DNA of 13,471 nt from a virus (lineage: Duplodnaviria; Heunggongvirae; Uroviricota; Caudoviricetes). Both the position numbers and the translations under genes were made by a program. The stretch is from IMG/VR virus record IMGVR_UViG_3300037313_001751, positions 64,001-77,471 of that record. One strand, given 5' to 3'. Shown one piece after another: positions 1 to 13,224 of this stretch. The notes beneath the pieces are model-generated. The model was not told the DNA's origin and did no database searches. It saw nothing but the letters and a program-made list of their open reading frames with translations. Each line of letters starts with the position of its first letter. Position 1 is the first letter of the stretch.

Positions 1-245
1 TGATAGATGTGTTGCATCTTGCCGATTTCGAGAGTTTGTGGCCTACTGAAATAGCACAGTTCCTCTAGTTTTTTTGGGTCTCCGTTGCAGTAAGTTTCTA
101 TCTCATCTACTGAGTAGACATCACTCAATTCGTTGAACTTTTCGCGGCTCTCATAATCGTAATTCGGCACGAGGAAGATTGCGTCAGGATCCACCTTTAT
201 CGGTTTTATTCGTCGCGCACGCACTTTGGTATTGTAGGCGACGCA
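1..245 (-). mobile_element. Intein N-terminal region inserted in the Walker A loop of the gp41-like helicase (truncated by the window edge)
   Basis: Walker A is interrupted after GGPG by CVAYNTKV (Cys1 codon 245-243), which fits intein block A (C-x4-T-x-V). The expected SGKS is absent in the remaining 81 codons. Confidence 0.8.
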
Positions 246-812
246 TCCTGGACCACCCACGAAAATAGTCACCTCGCCCCGGTTTAGCCCACCATATAAT
301 TTTCTATCAAGATCCTCCCAGCCAGTTGGCCGCATGCCAGTGCGGTCTTTCATTCGCTGTAACCTAGTTAGTGGATCGTTAAAATACTCAGTTCCAAGGT
401 CTTTCTGTAAAGAGATCAGGTTTGCCTCTTTTATGAGGCGTTCAATTTCCCCTCGGTTTCCCTGTTCAAGAAGGGGCACGCTGGCAAGTATCGCAAGCTC
501 AAGCGCTTTATGACGACAGAAAGCTTCTATTGTATCAAGGAACCAAGGCTCTTGGGCCTCGGCGTCCTCAACCAATGGCAAGCGGACATTGGCAAACGAA
601 CTAACGACATCGGGGCTTGGCAATTTGCTATATTTTTGCGCATAATTGAGGATGAACCTCGCAACAGTTTGTAAGTCTTGATGCCAATATTCTGCCTTCA
701 GAATATTTTGACACCTTGCAAATACATTCGGAGACGATAATAGGTATCTCAGTAGGAATTTTTCAGTTTCAAAGCTATACGTAACGGTATCATTTCGCTG
801 TGAATTCCTCAT
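1..812 (-). CDS. Replicative DnaB/T4 gp41-like helicase, N-terminal part, intein-containing; runs off the left edge
   Basis: Absent from the ORF track and translated by hand. ATG at 812 has AAGGA 6 nt upstream, and the frame is open to position 1: MRNSQRNDTVTYSFETEKFLLRYLL...FCRHKALELAI...LQKDLGTEYFNDP...PTGWEDLDRKLYGGLNRGEVTIFVGGPG|C. TGW..LD..L.GG...GE is the DnaB/gp41 pre-Walker A motif. The gene follows the primase with a 23-nt overlap. Confidence 0.92.
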   Translation of the reverse strand, partial: MRNSQRNDTVTYSFETEKFLLRYLLSSPNVFARCQNILKAEYWHQDLQTVARFILNYAQKYSKLPSPDVVSSFANVRLPLVEDAEAQEPWFLDTIEAFCRHKALELAILASVPLLEQGNRGEIERLIKEANLISLQKDLGTEYFNDPLTRLQRMKDRTGMRPTGWEDLDRKLYGGLNRGEVTIFVGGPGCVAYNTKVRARRIKPIKVDPDAIFLVPNYDYESREKFNELSDVYSVDEIETYCNGDPKKLEELCYFSRPQTLEIGKMQHIY

Positions 813-1917
813 CGTGTTCCTTTAAATTTGGTTCATGGCGCAAATGGATGCGCCTGCGCGCACTGATATATGCGGCACTGTTTGTCAACGACTCTGGCTG
901 TAGAACAGTCCATAACGGGTAGATAGCGCCGTAATATTTTACAGCGTCAGAAGCGTCCTTAATTGACGGATGCCAACGCGGAAAACTGACATACCAACCA
1001 TGTTTTATTGCGGCATCAACAAGGGCGCCACCACCCTTCTCAAAATCAGGCAAGACAACAATTGTTTTCTCCGTATTGTTGAGCCAGCTACATTGATCGG
1101 TCGATAAATGGTTGCCAAGCGTTGCGATGCCATTTATCGCCAATGCGTCAAAAGGCCCCTCGCAAATGATAATGTATTCCTGATCGGCACTAATTCCATC
1201 CACATTAAAGAGGTAATTTGGCTGTGAATTGGTGATATACCTACTAACTTTTTTGGCTTTTAGATACCCGGCATTGTTAATAGATCGTGCAGTCCAGCCA
1301 ACAATTCGTCCATACCATTTAAAGGGGATTATCACCCGGTCAGCAAAGCTTTGTTTCCGTCCATACCTATCGATTGTTGGATCAGGACTCCAATACCACT
1401 CATATTGAGTGATAACATCACGCCCGCGCCCTTGCAAATATTCTACCACGGCGAGAAAATCAGGGTTTACCTGGTCTTGTGAGAGCCAATAAACGAAGGA
1501 GCGGGACCCGGCAGGCAGAGCAACGTCTTTGAAATTAAACGAGATGTCAGGCGGATCATCTTTTTGCTGTTTTATCTGCTCGCGTAATTGGTAGGCTTTG
1601 AAATTGAACCGTTGAATCTCATAATCAGAGATTCCAAACCAACTGAGCAAGTTCCTAAACCGTTTGGAGAATTGTTGGCCCCGCCTCCATCCGGTTTTGT
1701 ATTGGCAGTTGAAGCAATTATATACGATCGAACCAGGATGAAGAGCAAAACCACCCCTCATCCTTGTATCACGCCCTTCGCGATTGTGCGTACAACACAC
1801 AGCATTAAATGACGTCCATGGTGTGCCAATCTTCCGTGAACCGGCACGAGCTAGACAAGCGGTATATATCTGCCTAGCGAGATCAACACCGCCGTCAAAC
1901 TCCGGCTGTAAAGCCAA
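790..1917 (-). CDS. DNA primase, T4 gp61-like (Zn-binding domain plus TOPRIM)
   Basis: Zn motif NAVCCTH...YNCFNC, RVIIPF, and TOPRIM motifs IICEGPFDA and VVLPDFE. The track starts at ATG 1950; TTG 1917 preceded by AAGGAGG is the more likely start. Confidence 0.9.
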   Translation of the reverse strand: MALQPEFDGGVDLARQIYTACLARAGSRKIGTPWTSFNAVCCTHNREGRDTRMRGGFALHPGSIVYNCFNCQYKTGWRRGQQFSKRFRNLLSWFGISDYEIQRFNFKAYQLREQIKQQKDDPPDISFNFKDVALPAGSRSFVYWLSQDQVNPDFLAVVEYLQGRGRDVITQYEWYWSPDPTIDRYGRKQSFADRVIIPFKWYGRIVGWTARSINNAGYLKAKKVSRYITNSQPNYLFNVDGISADQEYIIICEGPFDALAINGIATLGNHLSTDQCSWLNNTEKTIVVLPDFEKGGGALVDAAIKHGWYVSFPRWHPSIKDASDAVKYYGAIYPLWTVLQPESLTNSAAYISARRRIHLRHEPNLKEHDEEFTAK

Positions 1918-3439
1918 ACAAGCCTCCTTCTTCGTAAATCTGACTTTCATATTTTTTTGGCCGAGTAAACTCGCGAACCTTGGCCCTTGCCGCGGTTAAA
2001 TTCTGCATCAAAGGAACATCAAATTCGTCGAGCTTTTGGATGCCACGTTCAGCAGTCTCAGTCGCCAAATAGTTAAGGTCCTTCGCAAAACGCCTAATCA
2101 TCGCGTAAGGATCCTTAGCTGCAAAGATATCGGGGATCAAACTGCGAAAGCGCAAAAGCCCCAAAGGAACATGAAGCCTATCATCCCTGTCATACATGTC
2201 CTGACTAGCAAACACTCCTTCAAGATGCACCTGCACATTGTGGTTCATCATTAATGCGTATGAGACAACATCCCAAGTGCTCGTAAACTTGAGATCTTCA
2301 TTAACGCACACTTGATCCATTGTTAGGCGCTTGCCTATCTCGGTGTTTACGAATGTACCAAAGCCGCCCTGTTCTTGATCTTTTAGTCCCTTACGTTCCC
2401 ATTCTTCGCGAATTTTGTCGAGGAATGGCACCTTCGCACGTGGCGCGCCTGGCAAGAACTCACGCCCGTCAATTTTATCGCCATGGACGCTCCAGCCACT
2501 TTGGTCCAGTGTGTAACCAAAGTAGCATTTGCCATATGCCGCTAGTGTAAACGGTGAACTCACATCGTAAGATATGGTGAAATTTGGATTAATCAACTCT
2601 CTAATACAACGCTGCATTGTAGTATAAACTGCTCCGTGTTGCAGTTTGCCCACTCCAAGGAAATGCAGCCAGTTCTTCTTTTCAAGAAGACCATCCCGCC
2701 ACATATCAATTAGCCTTGTCATAGTCATTTCAAAGTTTTCTTTGTGTGGACCCGCCAGTGCCCAGGCCTCAAAGTCGTAGTGTTTTACCTTGTTATACCA
2801 CACCCGGCTTTCTTCAACTGTGCGTCCTTGCACAACATTGAGGAATTTCGTTGCCCCAGGTTTCCTATGCTCGATGAAGTAGTTGTTATTTTGGAGGGTT
2901 TGATATAGGCAGGCTGAGAAGCAGAATTTCTCATAATCTAAAGGATTGAAGCCGAGACCCCTGCAAAATTGGTCGAGGTCCACACCTTCCGCGCGAAGCC
3001 GCTCAACATGGGGATCGACACTTCCAAGATTGATCCCACCTGTTGGGAAGTCCAATATCATCGACCAGTCTGTCATGCCTTCTAGCCATCGCATCATAAT
3101 CTCGCGAGTCTTGTCGCCCTGCCAGCGGATCGCCCTCGTCTGAATTTGATAGCCACCTGAGTCGCCAATCACGGTGGTGCGTTCTTTGTCCCGCAACGCA
3201 AACATACAGTCGCGCTTCAGGGAAGCTGTTTCAGATTTTGCCGCTTGACCGGCAGAATAGAGAGCGTATGGGATAAAAAAGATGTTGGAGTTAGGATTGA
3301 GGAAATTCAAATCCTCGGCTGGAACTGGCAGGGGACGTTTTGGATTCTTATTGGCTAAACACCTCGAATACATTTCCGATACCGACGGAACAAAAACGGC
3401 GTAATCTCGATACCTTTTAGAGTAATCAATCCCTGTCAT
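1895..3439 (-). CDS. TGT-fold (tRNA/DNA-guanine transglycosylase, DpdA/Tgt-like) protein
   Basis: Ordered TGT motifs GDSGGYQI, MILDFP, NVVQG, ALAG, HFLGVG, SYDVSSP and a late HN. Likely start is ATG 3439 with GAAGGA upstream; the track starts at 3466. Confidence 0.8.
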   Translation of the reverse strand: MTGIDYSKRYRDYAVFVPSVSEMYSRCLANKNPKRPLPVPAEDLNFLNPNSNIFFIPYALYSAGQAAKSETASLKRDCMFALRDKERTTVIGDSGGYQIQTRAIRWQGDKTREIMMRWLEGMTDWSMILDFPTGGINLGSVDPHVERLRAEGVDLDQFCRGLGFNPLDYEKFCFSACLYQTLQNNNYFIEHRKPGATKFLNVVQGRTVEESRVWYNKVKHYDFEAWALAGPHKENFEMTMTRLIDMWRDGLLEKKNWLHFLGVGKLQHGAVYTTMQRCIRELINPNFTISYDVSSPFTLAAYGKCYFGYTLDQSGWSVHGDKIDGREFLPGAPRAKVPFLDKIREEWERKGLKDQEQGGFGTFVNTEIGKRLTMDQVCVNEDLKFTSTWDVVSYALMMNHNVQVHLEGVFASQDMYDRDDRLHVPLGLLRFRSLIPDIFAAKDPYAMIRRFAKDLNYLATETAERGIQKLDEFDVPLMQNLTAARAKVREFTRPKKYESQIYEEGGLFGFTAGV

Positions 3440-3479
3440 TGTTGACTTTCCTTCTAAAATTGCCACTTAAATGATCAAG

Positions 3480-3485
3480 TATTTA
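3480..3485 (-). promoter_or_regulatory. TAAATA late-promoter-like motif upstream of the tgt-like/primase/helicase operon
   Basis: TAAATA on the minus strand about 40 nt before ATG 3439; matches the core of the T4 gp55 late promoter TATAAATA. Confidence 0.5.
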
Positions 3486-3676
3486 GAAGGACACTGTAGC
3501 CTGTCTAGCTCTCGACAGTCAATTTGATTACCCGATGCGATTCTCAGACAAATAAATAGAACATGCTCCTCGCGAGTCCCACAATCCTCACCAACTCCAA
3601 ATGCAGCCTTTGAGCTTGCACTGGATCCTCTTCTCCTTTAACATCTAGCGGTTAGCAAACCACTAGGCAATATCCT

Positions 3677-3907
3677 ATGTTAAGATGGAAATTCTGGCGG
3701 CGCAACCGCGAAGCAGTTCAGTTAGAGGAACTTAAGAAACCGAGCTACGGACTCTCAGAGGCCGAAATCGAAAGCCTCGTCAAACAATACCAAACACTGG
3801 ATAAAGCACCAGTCTCCGCCACTGATCGTATTTGCCACCGATGCATGTTTATACACAAAAGGGCAGCCGCCCGTTGCCCTAAATGTGGCGCTGTCCAGGT
3901 AACTTAA
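3677..3907 (+). CDS. Small hypothetical protein with a C-terminal zinc ribbon
   Basis: 76 aa with CHRC-x10-CPKC at the C-terminus; fills an otherwise empty gap. Confidence 0.7.
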   Translation: MLRWKFWRRNREAVQLEELKKPSYGLSEAEIESLVKQYQTLDKAPVSATDRICHRCMFIHKRAAARCPKCGAVQVT

Positions 3908-3956
3908 GAACACAAGATTAAAATTCAATCATCTGCCATTAGTTTTTGGAAAGCCC

Positions 3957-3985
3957 TTGACGTCAAAAACTTGGACCAATATAGT
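3957..3985 (+). promoter_or_regulatory. Host sigma70-type early promoter
   Basis: TTGACG (3957-3962), 17-nt spacer, TATAGT (3980-3985): near consensus with optimal spacing. Confidence 0.8.
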
Positions 3986-4109
3986 GAACGAGCTAAGCAA
4001 ATGCTTAGTAACCTCGGTAATGAGGGTAAACTGTTAAAAACCAGAAGTGCCTTTGTTATCAACAAACGATACTTTCGACCGAATAAGCACAGAAGGACAA
4101 GGTAATATT

Positions 4110-5027
4110 ATGTCAGATCCGATACGTGAACACGAAGAGACCGTTCAGTTCAAGGTCCTAGAAGGTGAGGAACGTTCCGAGATTATAGACGTTGCTATCA
4201 AGGAGGTAAGTGAACGCATTACTGATCAAATAACTTCTGATGCACGCGAAACGCTTGCGAGAACACTGGCGCTTATCAATAGCGAGGCGCAAAGTGAGGT
4301 AAACAAGCTGGCAGACGATGTAAGGAGGCAGCTTACGCTACAACAAGAAGCGATCAACACCGAAATGTTGGGTTTTCTCGGTGATACGAGAAGGCAAATC
4401 AGCGATCAACAGCAGATGGTAGCTAGCGAAACTGCCAATTTTGTAGCCAGCGCTCGTCAGCAGATCGGAGAACAACAGGAGGCAACAAGTCGCGAGTTGA
4501 CAAATTTCCTCGTAAACACTCGGGAGCAGATTGGCTCAATAAGGAACGACATCAGCGAACAAGCTCGTGACCATCTTAGCAACCTGATGGATGAGATAAG
4601 GGAAATCGCAACTCAACGGGTTAACGAAGTAGTCGCCCTTATCCGGGAGGAGGAGCGCGCTGCTGCTGTGCAACGCAATGAAGCAGCGACAATAGCCGAG
4701 GAAGTCGCTAGGGAGCTACGTGATCGTGAATTCAAGGAAAAGGACACACAGCTGATTGAATCTCGCCAAAGCTCGTCGCCTATTACAGCCATTGTGCAAA
4801 ACAACGTGGCCGACGTTCTAAAGGAGCGTATCGACCATGCAAGAGAGGTGCAACAGGAAGTATTGAATATGGTCCAAAAGTGGACCCAGGATGCCATTAG
4901 TCGACAGGCGTCCTTGATGACGAACGGCCCCCTCAACGAGCTTATCAAGCACCAGCAAGACTTCATGCGGGAATACTATACTATGGGATCAAAGGTGCTC
5001 CTCAGCATGATGCCACATAGGAAGTAG
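4110..5027 (+). CDS. All-helical protein with 22-aa amphipathic repeats and a possible phasin-like C-terminus
   Basis: ATG 4110 with AAGGACAAGG upstream (the track starts at GTG 4047). Rich in Q/E/R/A with almost no Pro; ends TAG TAA, followed by a terminator. Confidence 0.8.
   Translation: MSDPIREHEETVQFKVLEGEERSEIIDVAIKEVSERITDQITSDARETLARTLALINSEAQSEVNKLADDVRRQLTLQQEAINTEMLGFLGDTRRQISDQQQMVASETANFVASARQQIGEQQEATSRELTNFLVNTREQIGSIRNDISEQARDHLSNLMDEIREIATQRVNEVVALIREEERAAAVQRNEAATIAEEVARELRDREFKEKDTQLIESRQSSSPITAIVQNNVADVLKERIDHAREVQQEVLNMVQKWTQDAISRQASLMTNGPLNELIKHQQDFMREYYTMGSKVLLSMMPHRK
4323..4586 (+). repeat. Four degenerate 66-bp (22-aa) tandem repeats
   Basis: RRQLTLQQEAINTEMLGFLGDT / RRQISDQQQMVASETANFVASA / RQQIGEQQEATSRELTNFLVNT / REQIGSIRNDISEQARDHLSNL. 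Confidence 0.8.
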
Positions 5028-5101
5028 TAAGTAGACAGAAGGTAACAGCAATCAAAACAAACATATGTGAGTAGTCACAACACTATTCACCGCTACTGAC
5101 T

Positions 5102-5140
5102 AAGCACCGTAGATCAGTTGGTCTACGGTGCTTCCTTTTC
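5102..5140 (+). terminator. Intrinsic terminator between convergent genes, probably bidirectional
   Basis: 12-bp perfect stem AAGCACCGTAGA (5102-5113) / TCTACGGTGCTT (5122-5133), followed by CCTTTTC. Confidence 0.8.
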
Positions 5141-5953
5141 TTATACACGGAATATGACTTTGTCAAACGTGCCCGCGTTCATACTATCTGCGAGGTATAA
5201 TGTGCGAAGCCAACGAAGGCTTGCTTCAACGGTTACCGGGTAAATGCCCGAAAAACGCTCAACATGAATTGAGTTCGAACCATTAGTGGCGATTGGAAAC
5301 CACAGTGTGTCATTAACTGGAGGTGATTCTTCAACACAACCCTGAACGAAGATGTCGCCAGTCCAATTTGTCATATACATCGCCAGTGTCATAACGCCAA
5401 AATCATGGTTGTTTACCTGTGCATTGGCAGGAAAGATATCACTGTAATAGTAATTCGTGTTTAGATTGCTTATTGCCCCAGGCGTGAAATTCGTGCAAAC
5501 GAGGGAATCAGCGGGTCCGATAACCGGTCCCTCAAGTAATTCGAAATAGCCATATCCCGACTGGTCCTGGTCAACATACAGGATCGACTGACTCAGGTCA
5601 CTAGCTTGATACACGATACTGTATCGATAAAAACCTAGCAGCCAATCATCCGTATCAAATCGATCGAGCACAAGAATGGCACTGCCTTGGAGTGGATCAA
5701 TGACGATAAGTGGTTTTTGCAGGACAACCTGGCCAGTTTCGGGATCTGCTATCGTTATCACTAAGGTGGCAGCACCCAGGTCGATAGGTTTTCGATCTGA
5801 ATTACGCACAACAACTTCAACCCGATTCTTAGAGCCTTTATAAATTTTGAATCTACTAGTGTTCATCGGCAAAGACCAGTGACGTACTCCAGGGATTTGA
5901 AGGGTGAGATCAATCTGCCTGCGGTAGTATATGGCAACAACTTTATCAGGCAT
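5141..5953 (-). CDS. Probable virion structural protein (Ig-like/BppU-like N-domain plus a beta-sandwich domain)
   Basis: Beta-rich. IYKGSKNRVEVVVRNSDRKPIDL...LQKPL...G.Y.YSI pattern is typical of BppU-like Ig domains (by eye). A perfect TATAAATA lies upstream. Likely start is ATG 5953 (track 5995). Confidence 0.6.
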   Translation of the reverse strand: MPDKVVAIYYRRQIDLTLQIPGVRHWSLPMNTSRFKIYKGSKNRVEVVVRNSDRKPIDLGAATLVITIADPETGQVVLQKPLIVIDPLQGSAILVLDRFDTDDWLLGFYRYSIVYQASDLSQSILYVDQDQSGYGYFELLEGPVIGPADSLVCTNFTPGAISNLNTNYYYSDIFPANAQVNNHDFGVMTLAMYMTNWTGDIFVQGCVEESPPVNDTLWFPIATNGSNSIHVERFSGIYPVTVEASLRWLRTLYLADSMNAGTFDKVIFRV

Positions 5954-5994
5954 GACAAGGATAAATCTCCAAAATCTCAGCAAAAACAAACACA

Positions 5995-6022
5995 TAAATA
6001 CTCTTATGTGTCATTATTTATA
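5995..6022. promoter_or_regulatory. Divergent pair of late-promoter-like motifs
   Basis: TAAATA on + at 5995-6000 points to gene 6040. A perfect TATAAATA on - at 6015-6022 points to gene 5953. Confidence 0.65.
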
Positions 6023-6039
6023 GTGTTGGCAGGAACGGG

Positions 6040-6399
6040 TTGAGAGAGATTTTGGAGAAATTCCCATTCTTATCACTGGGACGATATTTAGACCAGGAAT
6101 ATCTCGGGATTATATCAAATTCAGACCAACAAATCTTGAGTATGTATATTTACTCAATGTTGCCTAGCGATGATCTGAAAAAGCTTTATCTCGCACTTGG
6201 TGATGAATGGTGGTGGGAGACCAATCGACAAATTCCTATCAATGTAGCCATAAAAGATCGATGGTCAATCTTCCGGCCTTATCTAAAGACATTCATTTCG
6301 AAAGATTTCTTTGTTGTGACTGGTCCATGCGTCAGTCTTGAGAATGTGATGGTCAAACGGATCAAACGGCGCCAAATAACATTAGTCCGGAAATTGTAG
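6040..6399 (+). CDS. Hypothetical protein of a jumbo-phage-type family (WWWETNRQIPIN motif)
   Basis: 119 aa, TTG start with AGGA upstream, basic C-terminus KRIKRRQITLVRKL. Confidence 0.8.
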   Translation: MREILEKFPFLSLGRYLDQEYLGIISNSDQQILSMYIYSMLPSDDLKKLYLALGDEWWWETNRQIPINVAIKDRWSIFRPYLKTFISKDFFVVTGPCVSLENVMVKRIKRRQITLVRKL

Positions 6400-6966
6400 C
6401 GCTTCCTCGACGAGCAGATTCATATTAACGATGACGACTTGTGCATAAGCATACGCATGCGATTTTTTCATAACAAACTGTCCATCGACCGGCAGCCAAA
6501 TCTCCTTTTTTATCTGCTCCGGCGAACAATTGAGCAAATATCGCTTCGCTGGAAGTTTTATCGCAAGCACCACAGCTAAGTCGTCTATTGTCTGGGGTTG
6601 CAACTGCTGCACAATACGAAACTGATCCCGTAGATGGAATAGGTTTTTAACGATAGCTTCATCTTGAAGCATGCACCACAGTGGTTCTGTTGTGCAAAGC
6701 CTATTAAGGTGTGCCTCGTCGCGCACTCGCTCATACAAACTGACATGTAGTAAATCCAGCTTGAAATAGCCAAGCGCCTGGGCACGTTCATAATCGAGAC
6801 TGGCCAGCTCTGTAGCCGGATCAATAGGGATATCTTGGAAGTACACGCCACTTACGTGGCGTGCGAGGTCACCTTTTTGGATTATACTTGCTTTAATGTG
6901 CACGAGATGTTCGAGGAGGGCATCACGGTTGCCAAAGTCAATGTCAATATCTGCATCGATGGTCAC
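6382..6966 (-). CDS. Miniature DNA polymerase III alpha (DnaE, family C) catalytic-core homolog
   Basis: 194 aa with DnaE motifs in the correct order: DADIDIDF (PDFDVDF), HVSGVYF (HAGGVVI), YFKLDLLHV (VKFDFLGL), NLFHL (GVFQL), LAIKLPA (ALFRPG), KKSHAYAYA (NKSHSAAYA). GTGA overlap with the upstream gene. Confidence 0.85.
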   Translation of the reverse strand: MTIDADIDIDFGNRDALLEHLVHIKASIIQKGDLARHVSGVYFQDIPIDPATELASLDYERAQALGYFKLDLLHVSLYERVRDEAHLNRLCTTEPLWCMLQDEAIVKNLFHLRDQFRIVQQLQPQTIDDLAVVLAIKLPAKRYLLNCSPEQIKKEIWLPVDGQFVMKKSHAYAYAQVVIVNMNLLVEEALQFPD

Positions 6967-10469: not shown

Positions 10470-10997
10470 CTATACTAGCTGTGTAATATCGAGAGTTTCT
10501 GGAATTTTTGAAACCTCTCTCACGAAGAAAACACAGGTTGGCTTGGGCCCAGTTGTCAATGGTACTGCTAAGAGGTGGCCAAACTTCAGTTTAGGAAAAA
10601 ACCACTTAACGTCCTGGAAAACATTGATGATTTCGATGTCCATGAAATCAGGCATATATCCAGAGATTGGGTTAATTCCGAACACCTGGAATGGCCTGTC
10701 GTTCAGTTTTTTTAATTCGATTACCTCTAATTCCCCACTATTTTTGTCTCCGATTATCACTGACCAGTCAATTGGCATCTGTATGGTTGAGTTACCGATG
10801 CGCAACTCTACCGCTATTGAATTAAACGATTCAAGGAACACGAGCGGAATAAAAATGTAATCTATATTTTTGATATCGCTGTAGTCCAGGACGCAATATC
10901 GTATATCCTTGAGCACATCGGACAATTGCTCGTCGTCAACGAAATCAGGAATGTTATTCATCGAATATGCTTCGTTTTCGACTGTCAAAATATTCAT
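10470..10997 (-). CDS. Hypothetical beta-rich protein, possibly a degenerate Hint/intein fold
   Basis: 175 aa with an ATGA overlap with the helicase C-half. The CDS itself is confident; the fold is inference only. Confidence 0.8.
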   Translation of the reverse strand: MNILTVENEAYSMNNIPDFVDDEQLSDVLKDIRYCVLDYSDIKNIDYIFIPLVFLESFNSIAVELRIGNSTIQMPIDWSVIIGDKNSGELEVIELKKLNDRPFQVFGINPISGYMPDFMDIEIINVFQDVKWFFPKLKFGHLLAVPLTTGPKPTCVFFVREVSKIPETLDITQLV

Positions 10998-11860
10998 TGC
11001 GAAATGCCTTGTGCCAATTGTTCGATGTAATTCACTTTTTGCAGGGTGTATGGGTATTCGGCTTTCCGATAGAACTTCTTCCTTGCGTTTAGGTGTTTCG
11101 CCGAGAATCTACACGTGCTTGCAATATCGAAGATTTGGACCCTATCTTTGTCACGTGCAATTCTGATACTACGTCCTATACTCTGGATGACGCGAATGAA
11201 ACTTTTGCCAGGTTCTACGATAATCAGGTTGAAAATCCGTGGAATGTTAATTCCAACACTCGCCACTCCATATGTTGCAATAATGATCTTATTGTCACTA
11301 TCGGACATGTCAAGGTAAGCGGTCTTCCGGACGTCAGTTTTTGTCGTGCCGCTGACGAAAACGCTGCCTTTTACCCGTTTCTGCAATTCACTGCCAGTCT
11401 CAATCCGATTGACAAGGACAAGTGTATTTCCTGTTGTTGCCGTCTGTCCGATCAGACTGCTTATCCAATCTAGTCGGGATTTATTGGTTACGAGATATTC
11501 ATATTCGGAATGAAAGTCTTCATATTCCACAGTATCAAGCATTTGAACAAGATTGACGTGGCATTTTGCCAACACACCTAGGTCCATCAAGGTTTTCGCA
11601 GCGAGTTGTTTTACAACTGGACCAATGCTGCATAAAATTGACATAGCATTGTAGTCTTCTGGTGGAATTGTCCCAGTTAGGCCCCACCTAATTGGCACGT
11701 GTGAAAAGGGGCCAGTAAGGACGTTTTTCAACACTTCGGCTTTGGCCTGGTGGCAATTTGCAACCATCAAACCGTTTGCAATATAATTGTGGTTCTTTTC
11801 GACATGGAGGTTGTACAATAGATCGGGCTTCTCGATAATCCGCATAGCCTTAATTTTCAT
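10994..11860 (-). CDS. uvsW: UvsW-like SF2 helicase, C-terminal half, fused to split-intein IntC
   Basis: After 35 intein residues the protein continues CHQAK (end of DECH), then WGLTGT (motif III), LVLVNR (IV), ATYGVASVGINIP (V) and IQSIGRSIR (VI). Confidence 0.93.
   Translation of the reverse strand: MKIKAMRIIEKPDLLYNLHVEKNHNYIANGLMVANCHQAKAEVLKNVLTGPFSHVPIRWGLTGTIPPEDYNAMSILCSIGPVVKQLAAKTLMDLGVLAKCHVNLVQMLDTVEYEDFHSEYEYLVTNKSRLDWISSLIGQTATTGNTLVLVNRIETGSELQKRVKGSVFVSGTTKTDVRKTAYLDMSDSDNKIIIATYGVASVGINIPRIFNLIIVEPGKSFIRVIQSIGRSIRIARDKDRVQIFDIASTCRFSAKHLNARKKFYRKAEYPYTLQKVNYIEQLAQGISQ
11756..11860 (-). mobile_element. Split intein C-fragment (IntC, 35 aa)
   Basis: MKIKAMRIIEKPDLLYNLHVEKNHNYIANGLMVAN|C carries blocks F and G, a terminal Asn and a +1 Cys. 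It begins with Met at the canonical split position, as in Npu DnaE and gp41-1 IntC. Confidence 0.92.
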
Positions 11861-11930
11861 CGACTCAACCGAATCCTTTCAAAAATGTCTGTTCGAAGAT
11901 TACTGTTAACTATGAAACTTCGGCTAGCCT

Positions 11931-12008
11931 TTAGATACGCCTTGCCAAAAATCCTAGGACAATCGTTAAATTCAACGCTCTAATAACCCTTTCGTTTCTT
12001 TTGCTCAT
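11931..12008 (-). pseudogene. 25-codon ORF with an RBS at the intein split point; possible remnant of an inserted (homing endonuclease) gene
   Basis: AAGGA-TATTA-ATG at 12008 gives MSKRNERVIRALNLTIVLGFLARRI, stop at 11933-11931; it overlaps the IntN tail in another frame. Confidence 0.35.
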
Positions 12009-13050
12009 TAATATCCTTTATTTCGATATCCACTATCTCATCGTTTGTTGAAAGGTCCTGGACTTGTTTCCAACCCGATGTCGTTTTGACCTTATGGTTG
12101 CCGGTAACGTGCAAAAAGGTACCGTCTTCCATTTCTAGCTCATACATTTCAGCTGCAATTGACGGCGTGAGATTGGTGTGAACGCGTACGACAGAATCCT
12201 CAACAATCTCTCCAGTATCTTCATCTACAGAATATACTGCGTCACCCGGCTTAAAGTCTTCAATGGCTCTGTGGCCTTCGGGAGTTGCAACAAGAGTTCC
12301 AGCTGCAAAACATTCGTCAACTATAACACAGGCAACGTCCCTAACGAATTCAGCCAGTGCGATTTGCGCTGACCCGTCTAGATTTGTTTTGATTAGTCGG
12401 TCGAGGCTCTGCCATGTACAAATGACATGTTTGTGCTTGTAATCCTTCTTTTCACCAAAGTAGACCCCGACATCTAATCCGATGTTTTCGTAATCGGAAA
12501 GGGTTTGTTTAACGAGATCTTTATTAGGCACAATGATGATTGTGCGCCCGTGCTGTTCACATAGATGTGATAACGCCGCACAGATGATAGTTTTACCGCT
12601 GCCTGTCGAGATTTCTTGTACGCTTTGTTTATTGGCAAGCGCTGTTTTTATAACCTCTACCTGGTAATCTCGGAGGATTATTGGCTGGCCAGCGGCTGGA
12701 TGATGCTTTGGCCACGTTAACCCAGGAAACGCGTCTGAAAAATATTCGGTGTCGATTTCGGGAAATTCATAGTTATGGTCAGGCCGATGATCTTCTAGTT
12801 CAAATGTGTAGCCAGCATCGATTATGATCTGCCATACTTTTTCAAGGACGTTAACAAACGTATTGCCGTTAATAGCGAAAAAGCTTACACAGCCATCCCA
12901 CCTGCCCAGCCGATAAGCTGGAGTGTGCCGCGCTGCGTGGATAAAGAACTTAAGTGCCTTGTTACACGCACGGCGAGTCGTTGGGTCTAATCCTACAAAA
13001 GAGGCGTTGCATTGATCATGGATCACTATTTTACAATGTTTGGTAGGCAT
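11980..13050 (-). CDS. uvsW: UvsW-like SF2 helicase, N-terminal half, fused to split-intein IntN
   Basis: PAYRLGRWDG, LRDYQ (Q motif), STGSGKT (Walker A), IIVPNKDLVKQ, then VIVDE|CFAAGT. Ends at TAG 11982-11980. ATG at 13050 is preceded by TTG 13053. Confidence 0.93.
   Translation of the reverse strand: MPTKHCKIVIHDQCNASFVGLDPTTRRACNKALKFFIHAARHTPAYRLGRWDGCVSFFAINGNTFVNVLEKVWQIIIDAGYTFELEDHRPDHNYEFPEIDTEYFSDAFPGLTWPKHHPAAGQPIILRDYQVEVIKTALANKQSVQEISTGSGKTIICAALSHLCEQHGRTIIIVPNKDLVKQTLSDYENIGLDVGVYFGEKKDYKHKHVICTWQSLDRLIKTNLDGSAQIALAEFVRDVACVIVDECFAAGTLVATPEGHRAIEDFKPGDAVYSVDEDTGEIVEDSVVRVHTNLTPSIAAEMYELEMEDGTFLHVTGNHKVKTTSGWKQVQDLSTNDEIVDIEIKDINEQKKRKGY
11983..12312 (-). mobile_element. Split intein N-fragment (IntN, 110 aa)
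   Basis: Block A CFAAGTLVATPEG...IEDFKPGD and block B LHVTGNHKV...GWKQVQDL; no endonuclease domain. Confidence 0.92.
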
Positions 13051-13121
13051 CAAAATCCGGTTTGTTGTTGTTATTCAGGATTTTGCTGAAGCAGCAGCTT
13101 AGACGTCTATATTGAGCCCCG

Positions 13122-13127
13122 TATTTA
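13122..13127 (-). promoter_or_regulatory. TAAATA motif upstream of the helicase N-half
   Basis: TAAATA on the minus strand about 70 nt before ATG 13050. Confidence 0.45.
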
Positions 13128-13224
13128 AGCTGCCAGCAGCGCTAGCGTTGAGCTAACCCGCTGCACTGCGCGTAAAAAAGCCCCTAAGCGGGTCCTGTAG
13201 CGTGGTCCAGCCGTTGCAGTTGTG

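Follow-up and report, generated by a model that had tools for sequence, protein, structure and literature searches.

A UvsW-like helicase gene on a jumbo-phage contig, split within an intein and probably joined by protein trans-splicing

The layout of two adjacent genes at the end of a viral contig, together with the conservation of the intein segments that they carry, suggests that a UvsW-like recombination/repair helicase is made in two pieces and joined by protein trans-splicing. The window, that is the whole stretch of 13,471 nucleotides (nt) analyzed here, is the terminal 13.5 kb of the 77.5-kb IMG/VR viral contig IMGVR_UViG_3300037313_001751. Within it the helicase is encoded by two adjacent, co-oriented open reading frames (ORFs) on the minus strand, and the break between them falls within an intein inside the DECH box (Table 1). 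The sequences make it very likely that this is a two-gene helicase joined by class-1 trans-splicing, and that an endonuclease gene has been lost from a formerly fractured locus. The resulting endonuclease-free split intein is genuine and probably active, and splicing is predicted. The contig is a fragment of the genome of an uncultured jumbo phage, since its CheckV completeness is only 17%. Its G+C content is 46.7%, and it uses the standard genetic code. Searched by megablast, the whole window matched none of the deposited phages, which means that no near-identical cultured phage is available.

The split helicase and its intein

The locus reads as a canonically split class-1 mini-intein inside helicase motif II, between the Glu and Cys of DECH. 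A reading made earlier from the DNA letters, here called the sequence-only reading, had claimed that the first ORF ends in DE/C (a slash marks a splice junction), continuing as a 110-residue N-terminal intein segment (IntN) to a TAG stop, and that the second opens with a 35-residue C-terminal segment (IntC) ending AN/CHQ, so that splicing would restore DECH. Translation confirms both statements. The N-terminal junction is ...VIVDE/CFAAGTLV..., and its first intein residue (Cys1, C248) is invariant in 28 N-half homologues. In the same homologues the His of block B, TGNH (TxxH), is invariant (H320) and its Thr (T317) is at least 90% conserved. The C-terminal junction is ...LMVAN/CHQAK, with N35 and C36 (Cys+1) invariant in 18 C-half homologues. 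The IntC residues M1 and H24, N25 and Y26 (the HNY of block F) are likewise invariant in these. The helicase motifs are invariant too.

Profile searches place both segments among known inteins, as the sequence-only reading had proposed to check with hidden Markov models. The NCBIfam models intein_Nterm (TIGR01445) and intein_Cterm (TIGR01443) score 25.1 bits (cut-off 24.5) and 33.2 bits (cut-off 15.6), while Pfam Hint and Hint_2 score 35.5 bits (cut-off 29.7) and 33.4 bits (cut-off 28.4). These scores are far beyond chance. The Intein_splicing profile stays below its cut-off on each half taken singly. IntN is acidic, with 22 D/E and 11 K/R, and IntC has 5 K/R against 3 D/E, with K2, K4 and R7 at its head; the recount agrees with the acidic IntN and basic IntC head (MKIKAMR) described earlier.

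The break falls between blocks B and F, at the canonical site of endonuclease insertion, and its position is kept among relatives. In all 18 aligned split loci the IntC start codon occupies the same alignment column, and the contiguous relatives span the same split point by a linker of about 12 residues. A sequence search of solved structures gave only weak intein matches, the best being 2lwy (1e-4), followed by RecA and DnaB mini-inteins (about 1e-3 to 1e-2) and DnaE (0.15-0.5). Judged by these matches, the intein is far in sequence from every solved intein.

The flanking exteins resemble T4 UvsW. The N-extein matches Pfam ResIII (4.4e-15) and DEAD (5.2e-12), and its best solved-structure match is T4 UvsW (1rif/2oca, E 1.6e-5). 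For the C-extein the corresponding matches are Pfam Helicase_C (1.9e-9) and residues 234-473 of T4 UvsW (2oca, E 7.8e-15). Pfam UvsW_N (PF21241) scores 15.0 bits on the N-half, below its cut-off of 25.3, and several homologues carry this domain. The superfamily 2 motifs GSGKT, DE/CH, LTGT and QSIGRSIR occur in order across the two halves. The nearest named homologue is the 508-residue helicase of Sinorhizobium phage Phosso, which has no intein and reads VIIDEAHQAKADVLKN across the site. It is 58% identical to the window in the N-extein and 61% in the C-extein, and it aligns with residues 27-476 of T4 UvsW (2oca, E 4e-22). Motif II at the site is DEAH in Phosso and DECH in T4 UvsW. Splicing would restore DECH, the native motif II of T4 UvsW, in a product of about 500 residues. 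T4 UvsW itself (PDB 2oca, 1rif) shares the DECH motif with the window and is collinear with the uninterrupted homologue over its whole length, but it is only a distant relative and T4 uvsW has no intein.

Table 1. Parts of the split helicase locus, in window coordinates
Feature	Position	Strand	Content
N-half ORF	13053 (TTG) / 13050 (ATG)..11980	minus	356 residues from the ATG; TAG stop
N-extein	12313..13050	minus	Residues 1-246 from the ATG; UvsW_N-like region, motif I STGSGKT, to VIVDE of motif II
IntN	11980..12312	minus	110 residues plus TAG (11982..11980); Cys1 at 12312..12310; block B TGNH
Spacer	11861..11979	minus	119 nt; decayed 3' remnant of a free-standing homing-endonuclease gene
C-half ORF	11860..10994	minus	288 residues; start MKIKAMRII...NHNYIANGLMVAN/CHQAK
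IntC	11756..11860	minus	35 residues, own ATG; blocks F and G: LLYNLHVEKNHNYIANGLMVAN
C-extein	10994..11755	minus	Cys+1 (11755..11753), HQAK..., motifs III-VI (LTGT, QSIGRSIR), stop

The lost endonuclease gene and the intein family

The spacer between the two ORFs is the decayed 3' end, about 40 codons, of a lost endonuclease gene, because its peptide aligns with sequences from the related loci L046, L048 and L045 beyond what shuffles give. Read in the IntN frame after the TAG, the spacer is open for 40 codons, and its closing TGA overlaps the IntC ATG (ATGA). L046 retains the endonuclease gene, which ends in ...DSDLSQDIKIRLPR before a stop that overlaps the IntC start as ATGA in the same way. 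In L048 the final third of the gene is left, riddled with stops and ending in ...IMNSNLPDIVKKRVNRL before the last one, and the spacer of L045 retains IINSNLPEIVIKRINL. The window peptide, with ...VNSNLRTDIFERIRLSR and ...FIVNSNLRTDIFERIRLSR each running to a stop, aligns with the C-terminus of the L046 endonuclease and with the L045 and L048 remnants. The observed score was reached by 3 of 2000 shuffles for L046, 0 of 2000 for L045 and 38 of 2000 for L048. About 50 nt of the spacer can still be aligned with L045 and L048.

Other roles for the spacer were also considered. An RNA element or intron was rejected, since there is no Rfam match at E<=1 and the fold z-score is -0.8. The conserved spacer word AACAGTAAT was tried as a phage promoter motif, but it occurs once in the contig against about 0.8 expected, which gives no support. 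A scan of the spacer for sigma-70 promoters and terminators found neither in convincing form.

The intein belongs to a large family in which the helicase takes several forms. The N-half with IntN corresponds to PHROGs family phrog_16259 (3.8e-51, residues 18-342), and IntC with the C-half corresponds to phrog_9690 (2.7e-59, from residue 1). A protein search found hundreds of proteins of about 338 residues that join a helicase N-half to a Hint domain, a few contiguous proteins of about 620 residues, and intein-free forms of about 497 residues. From IMG/VR 40 loci were fetched, and 38 could be scored. A gap of about 900 nt with an endonuclease ORF of about 300 residues separates the halves in 27 of the 38 (the ORF is shorter or broken in L024 and L027). 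Four are split with a short spacer (80, 15, 9 and -4 nt), and the other seven have a contiguous mini-intein. Phages S16 and PM2 and locus L046 also have an endonuclease ORF between the halves. The intervening ORF has a NUMOD3 motif and a TnsA-like PD-(D/E)xK endonuclease region, for which the Pfam matches are weak, and it matches phrog_22417 and the 'endonuclease' family phrog_15427, with values down to 1.9e-25. The comparison of related uvsW loci proposed by the sequence-only reading thus turned up split, fractured and contiguous forms of the same intein.

The distribution of these forms points to repeated loss of the endonuclease gene. The C-extein tree joins the window to L045 (support 99), within a clade of five rows that also holds the intein-free Phosso, the endonuclease-bearing L046 and the remnant-bearing L048. 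The short-spacer forms are scattered on the tree; six changes are needed, and the starred branches force at least three. An extein tree need not track the history of a mobile intein, and the repeated loss suggested by this scatter is to be read with that caveat. In L027 (5036-5945) and L024 the longest open frames are 165 and 279 residues, compared with about 310 elsewhere, and these two loci look like intermediate stages of endonuclease decay.

In six of the loci the same helicase is in three pieces (L038, positions 2054-6327; also L034, L035, L037, L039 and L041), and motif I holds a second intein, whose split is atypical. Piece 1 reads ...ATGAGK/CLAGDTEL... and stops about 45 residues later, so its IntN is short. 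It is followed by a 335-residue ORF with a weak restriction-endonuclease-like match. Piece 2 opens with an IntC of about 140 residues ending ...LIHHN/TIMTAALS, and splicing there would restore GAGKT. A single protein would then have to be spliced by two distinct inteins that differ in their split points.

Authenticity and activity of the split

Trans-splicing at this locus would proceed by the steps of a class-1 intein. Both halves would be translated from one transcript, with separate initiation of the C-half gene. The acidic 110-residue IntN and the 35-residue IntC with its basic head would dock into one Hint fold. Cys1 would then carry out the N-S acyl shift, Cys+1 would attack, and cyclization of the terminal Asn would release a helicase of about 500 residues with DECH restored. 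As for the history of the locus, comparison of the relatives shows that a contiguous mini-intein at this site was invaded by a free-standing NUMOD3/PD-(D/E)xK endonuclease gene, which gave rise to a fractured gene still found in many of them. The endonuclease gene was later lost in the window lineage, leaving its last 40 or so codons as the 119-nt spacer.

Structure prediction supports the docking of the two segments. N-half residues 244-357 were modeled with C-half residues 1-45 in three runs, giving an ipSAE of 0.64, while the best of three controls reached 0.00. Of 80 solved complexes 58 reach the mark used for this score, as do 2 of 110 mismatched pairs; these counts are rough because the alignments were custom ones. 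At least 92% of contacts are common to the runs, and the predicted local distance difference test (pLDDT) value of the partner is at least 67. The predicted association may partly reflect likeness to solved split-intein complexes. In the model IntC residues 3-9 pair with the IntN strand EMYELEME, and this pairing of a basic head with an acidic strand fits the charge complementarity noted in the sequence-only reading.

Several explanations compete with trans-splicing, and one of them is that the split is an artefact. On that view the true sequence would hold a contiguous mini-intein, or else an intact helicase, and errors would account for the stop, the spacer and the frame change. Contiguous mini-inteins of the same allele do exist, in L005, L023, L025, L026, L041, L042 and L044 and in the proteins of about 620 residues P0034, P0039 and P0054. 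However, the split is a true feature of the genome, since it recurs in other assemblies and the nearest relative is split likewise. An identical N-half protein with the same stop is called in three further assemblies. Logan SRR35147159 has the same 119-nt gap followed by a 288-residue C-half gene, in Logan SRR35147322 the same gap is present and the contig ends within the C-half gene after it, and Joint Genome Institute assembly 3300038443 is 100% identical to the window across the junction in all 185 bases compared. The nearest distinct relative, L045 (also in GCA_015689235.1), has two genes that lie 77 nt apart without an intervening endonuclease gene. The homology of the spacer to the end of an endonuclease gene is a further point against error. 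The sequence-only reading had argued against a single sequencing error from ORFs lying 119 nt apart and out of frame, with several stops of the IntC frame in the spacer; the gap and the difference in frame were confirmed, seven such stops were counted, and the recurrence of the split bears the argument out. An artefact is therefore extremely improbable. A different candidate, recoding of TAG with read-through of IntN, was rejected: TAG ends 24 of the 91 long ORFs of the 77-kb contig, and any recoded stop lengthens frames about equally. The gene would remain split even if the TAG were read through.

A genuine split could still be a decayed one, in which the intein halves have lost splicing and what is left of the helicase is a two-piece pseudogene, its function covered by another helicase. 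Several features weigh against an active intein or would fit this explanation. The consensus Asp at block F4 and the penultimate His are replaced by Asn (YNLH) and Ala, as the sequence-only reading had noted. The Asp and the His are more usual in well-studied inteins, and changes in them can slow splicing; class-1 inteins commonly have both residues but do not require them. Ahead of the IntC ATG there is a single Shine-Dalgarno-like motif, AAAGGA, at a distance of 13 nt, which is more than the optimum. IntN has a basic tail of 12-15 residues (KDINEQKKRKGY) that is absent from most relatives, and the mobile element is visibly decaying, its endonuclease having been lost. Yet both residue deviations are family-wide: the penultimate residue is S, A, H or E, and F4 is N or, in two relatives, T. 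Moreover, F4 Asn is common to the contiguous forms, which must splice to give a working helicase. The ORFs are intact over 356 and 288 codons, and they keep every helicase motif and every catalytic residue of the intein. The best case for activity is an evolutionary one and is made by L045, which like the window is endonuclease-free. The two have diverged to 69% identity in the helicase parts, 69% in IntC and 45% in IntN, and in both the ORFs and the catalytic residues are intact, which would be unexpected under neutral decay. Intactness at 45-69% identity indicates long purifying selection after loss of the endonuclease, and decay is accordingly given a small likelihood. Slightly less probable again is that IntN and IntC form a tight dimerization module that holds the helicase halves together without ligation. 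Fragmented phage enzymes can function without splicing, for example the Aeh1 NrdA, which is split by an HNH endonuclease gene (cited in PMC2677866), and the docking model backs association while being silent on chemistry. If binding sufficed, however, nothing would hold Cys1, TxxH, the terminal Asn and Cys+1 constant, and they are invariant or nearly so. In addition, an unspliced Hint domain would sit within motif II, between the Glu and His of the ATPase site. The interpretation of the locus as a naturally split intein, given in the sequence-only reading, is supported by the conserved split and the kept catalytic residues, and trans-splicing is probable.

Neighboring genes, known systems and implications

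The genes around the helicase include other replication functions. Upstream of the N-half gene is a non-coding stretch of 171 nt (13054-13224), apparently with a higher G+C content than the sequence around it and with several GCTAGC-like words; in L049 the same place is taken by a similar gap of about 174 nt. The stretch may hold the helicase-gene promoter or the terminator of the upstream gene. On the other side, a 175-residue protein of unknown function (10470-10997, minus strand; phrog_11279, 2.5e-51) has an ATGA overlap with the stop of the C-half gene. Genes of similar size are found at the same position in Phosso (166 residues), L045 (167) and L048 (166), and the protein may be conserved as a partner of the helicase or as a member of its operon. 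A replication module on the minus strand (3-3466 and 6382-6966) has a DnaB-like helicase (phrog_19), a primase (phrog_47) and a 194-residue protein that covers the whole of a 197-position PHROG named 'DNA polymerase' (phrog_11778, 2.8e-58). Pfam gave no match for 10 neighboring window proteins; PHROGs named some of them.

The same intein allele is present in cultured phages. In Salmonella phage S16 (NC_020416), gp114 ends MMNDE/CFDGDTL...VEWK before its stop, the 291-residue gp114.1 follows, and gp115 then reads ...NHNYFANGALAHN/CHLATGK. The insertion is at the same DE/CH site of uvsW, and the IntN of gp114 is 54.6% identical to that of the window. The S16 IntC also has 35 residues, starts at the same column and ends HN/CH. 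Proteus phage PM2 and phage STP4-a have uvsW split by the same intein. S16 and PM2 differ from the window in keeping the 291-residue endonuclease-like ORF between the halves; they are T4-like, with genomes of about 160 kb, and their exteins are only about 25-30% identical to those of the window. S16-type records label the pieces merely 'DNA helicase' and 'hypothetical protein'.

The cyanobacterial DnaE inteins (Ssp, Npu) share with the window the canonical split site, a long acidic IntN, an IntC of about 35 residues, Cys1 and Cys+1. A penultimate His is absent from the Ssp DnaE intein as well. The two DnaE halves are encoded at separate loci (PMC2677866), whereas those of the window are 119 nt apart in a different host gene, and the similarity is marginal (E 0.15-0.5).

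A closer parallel is offered by the fractured genes described by Dassa, London, Stoddard, Schueler-Furman & Pietrokovski 2009 (PMC2677866), in which a free-standing endonuclease gene lies between the halves of a split intein. Their model runs from a contiguous intein, through invasion by a free-standing endonuclease gene, to fractured loci. Like the window, these loci have a phage DNA-metabolism enzyme broken by a canonically split class-1 mini-intein, with the halves adjacent and co-oriented, and the window's relatives likewise have a free-standing endonuclease gene between them. The window has only the 119-nt remnant at that place, which matches the state of the gp41-7 locus, reported in the same paper without an endonuclease between its halves. 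It differs in its UvsW-like host and in the NUMOD3 and TnsA-like PD-(D/E)xK type of its relatives' endonuclease. The hosts listed in that paper are gp41, IMPDH, DnaE, NrdA, NrdJ, ligase and terminase, and UvsW is not among them.

The arrangement is not new in sequence space, judging from the cultured phages S16, STP4-a and PM2, the two PHROG families and its abundance in metagenomes, and public sequences of it date back at least to the S16 genome record. A literature search, which did not cover subscription papers, found no paper that describes a UvsW split intein or calls the S16 and STP4-a pieces one. A broader proposal is offered tentatively and is doubtful as a whole. It holds that the UvsW DE/CH intein is an uncharacterized, canonically split family (F4 Asn, no penultimate His, marginal similarity to solved and engineered split inteins) and hence a possible orthogonal trans-splicing pair, that one allele shows four states (contiguous, endonuclease-fractured, remnant and endonuclease-free), and that the 3' end of the endonuclease gene may be kept for translation initiation of the C-half.

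Understanding of how inteins work is unchanged by this locus, which adds no new principle. It is a clean natural case of an endonuclease-free split intein in which the scar of the lost endonuclease can still be read, and its relatives show the other states. The pair could be tried as orthogonal ligation parts because it is small (110 and 35 residues), uses Cys1 and Cys+1, and is distant in sequence from characterized split inteins; many natural variants are available. Where S16-like and jumbo phages are annotated with two 'DNA helicase' pieces, these should be taken as a single uvsW gene whose product is joined by protein trans-splicing.

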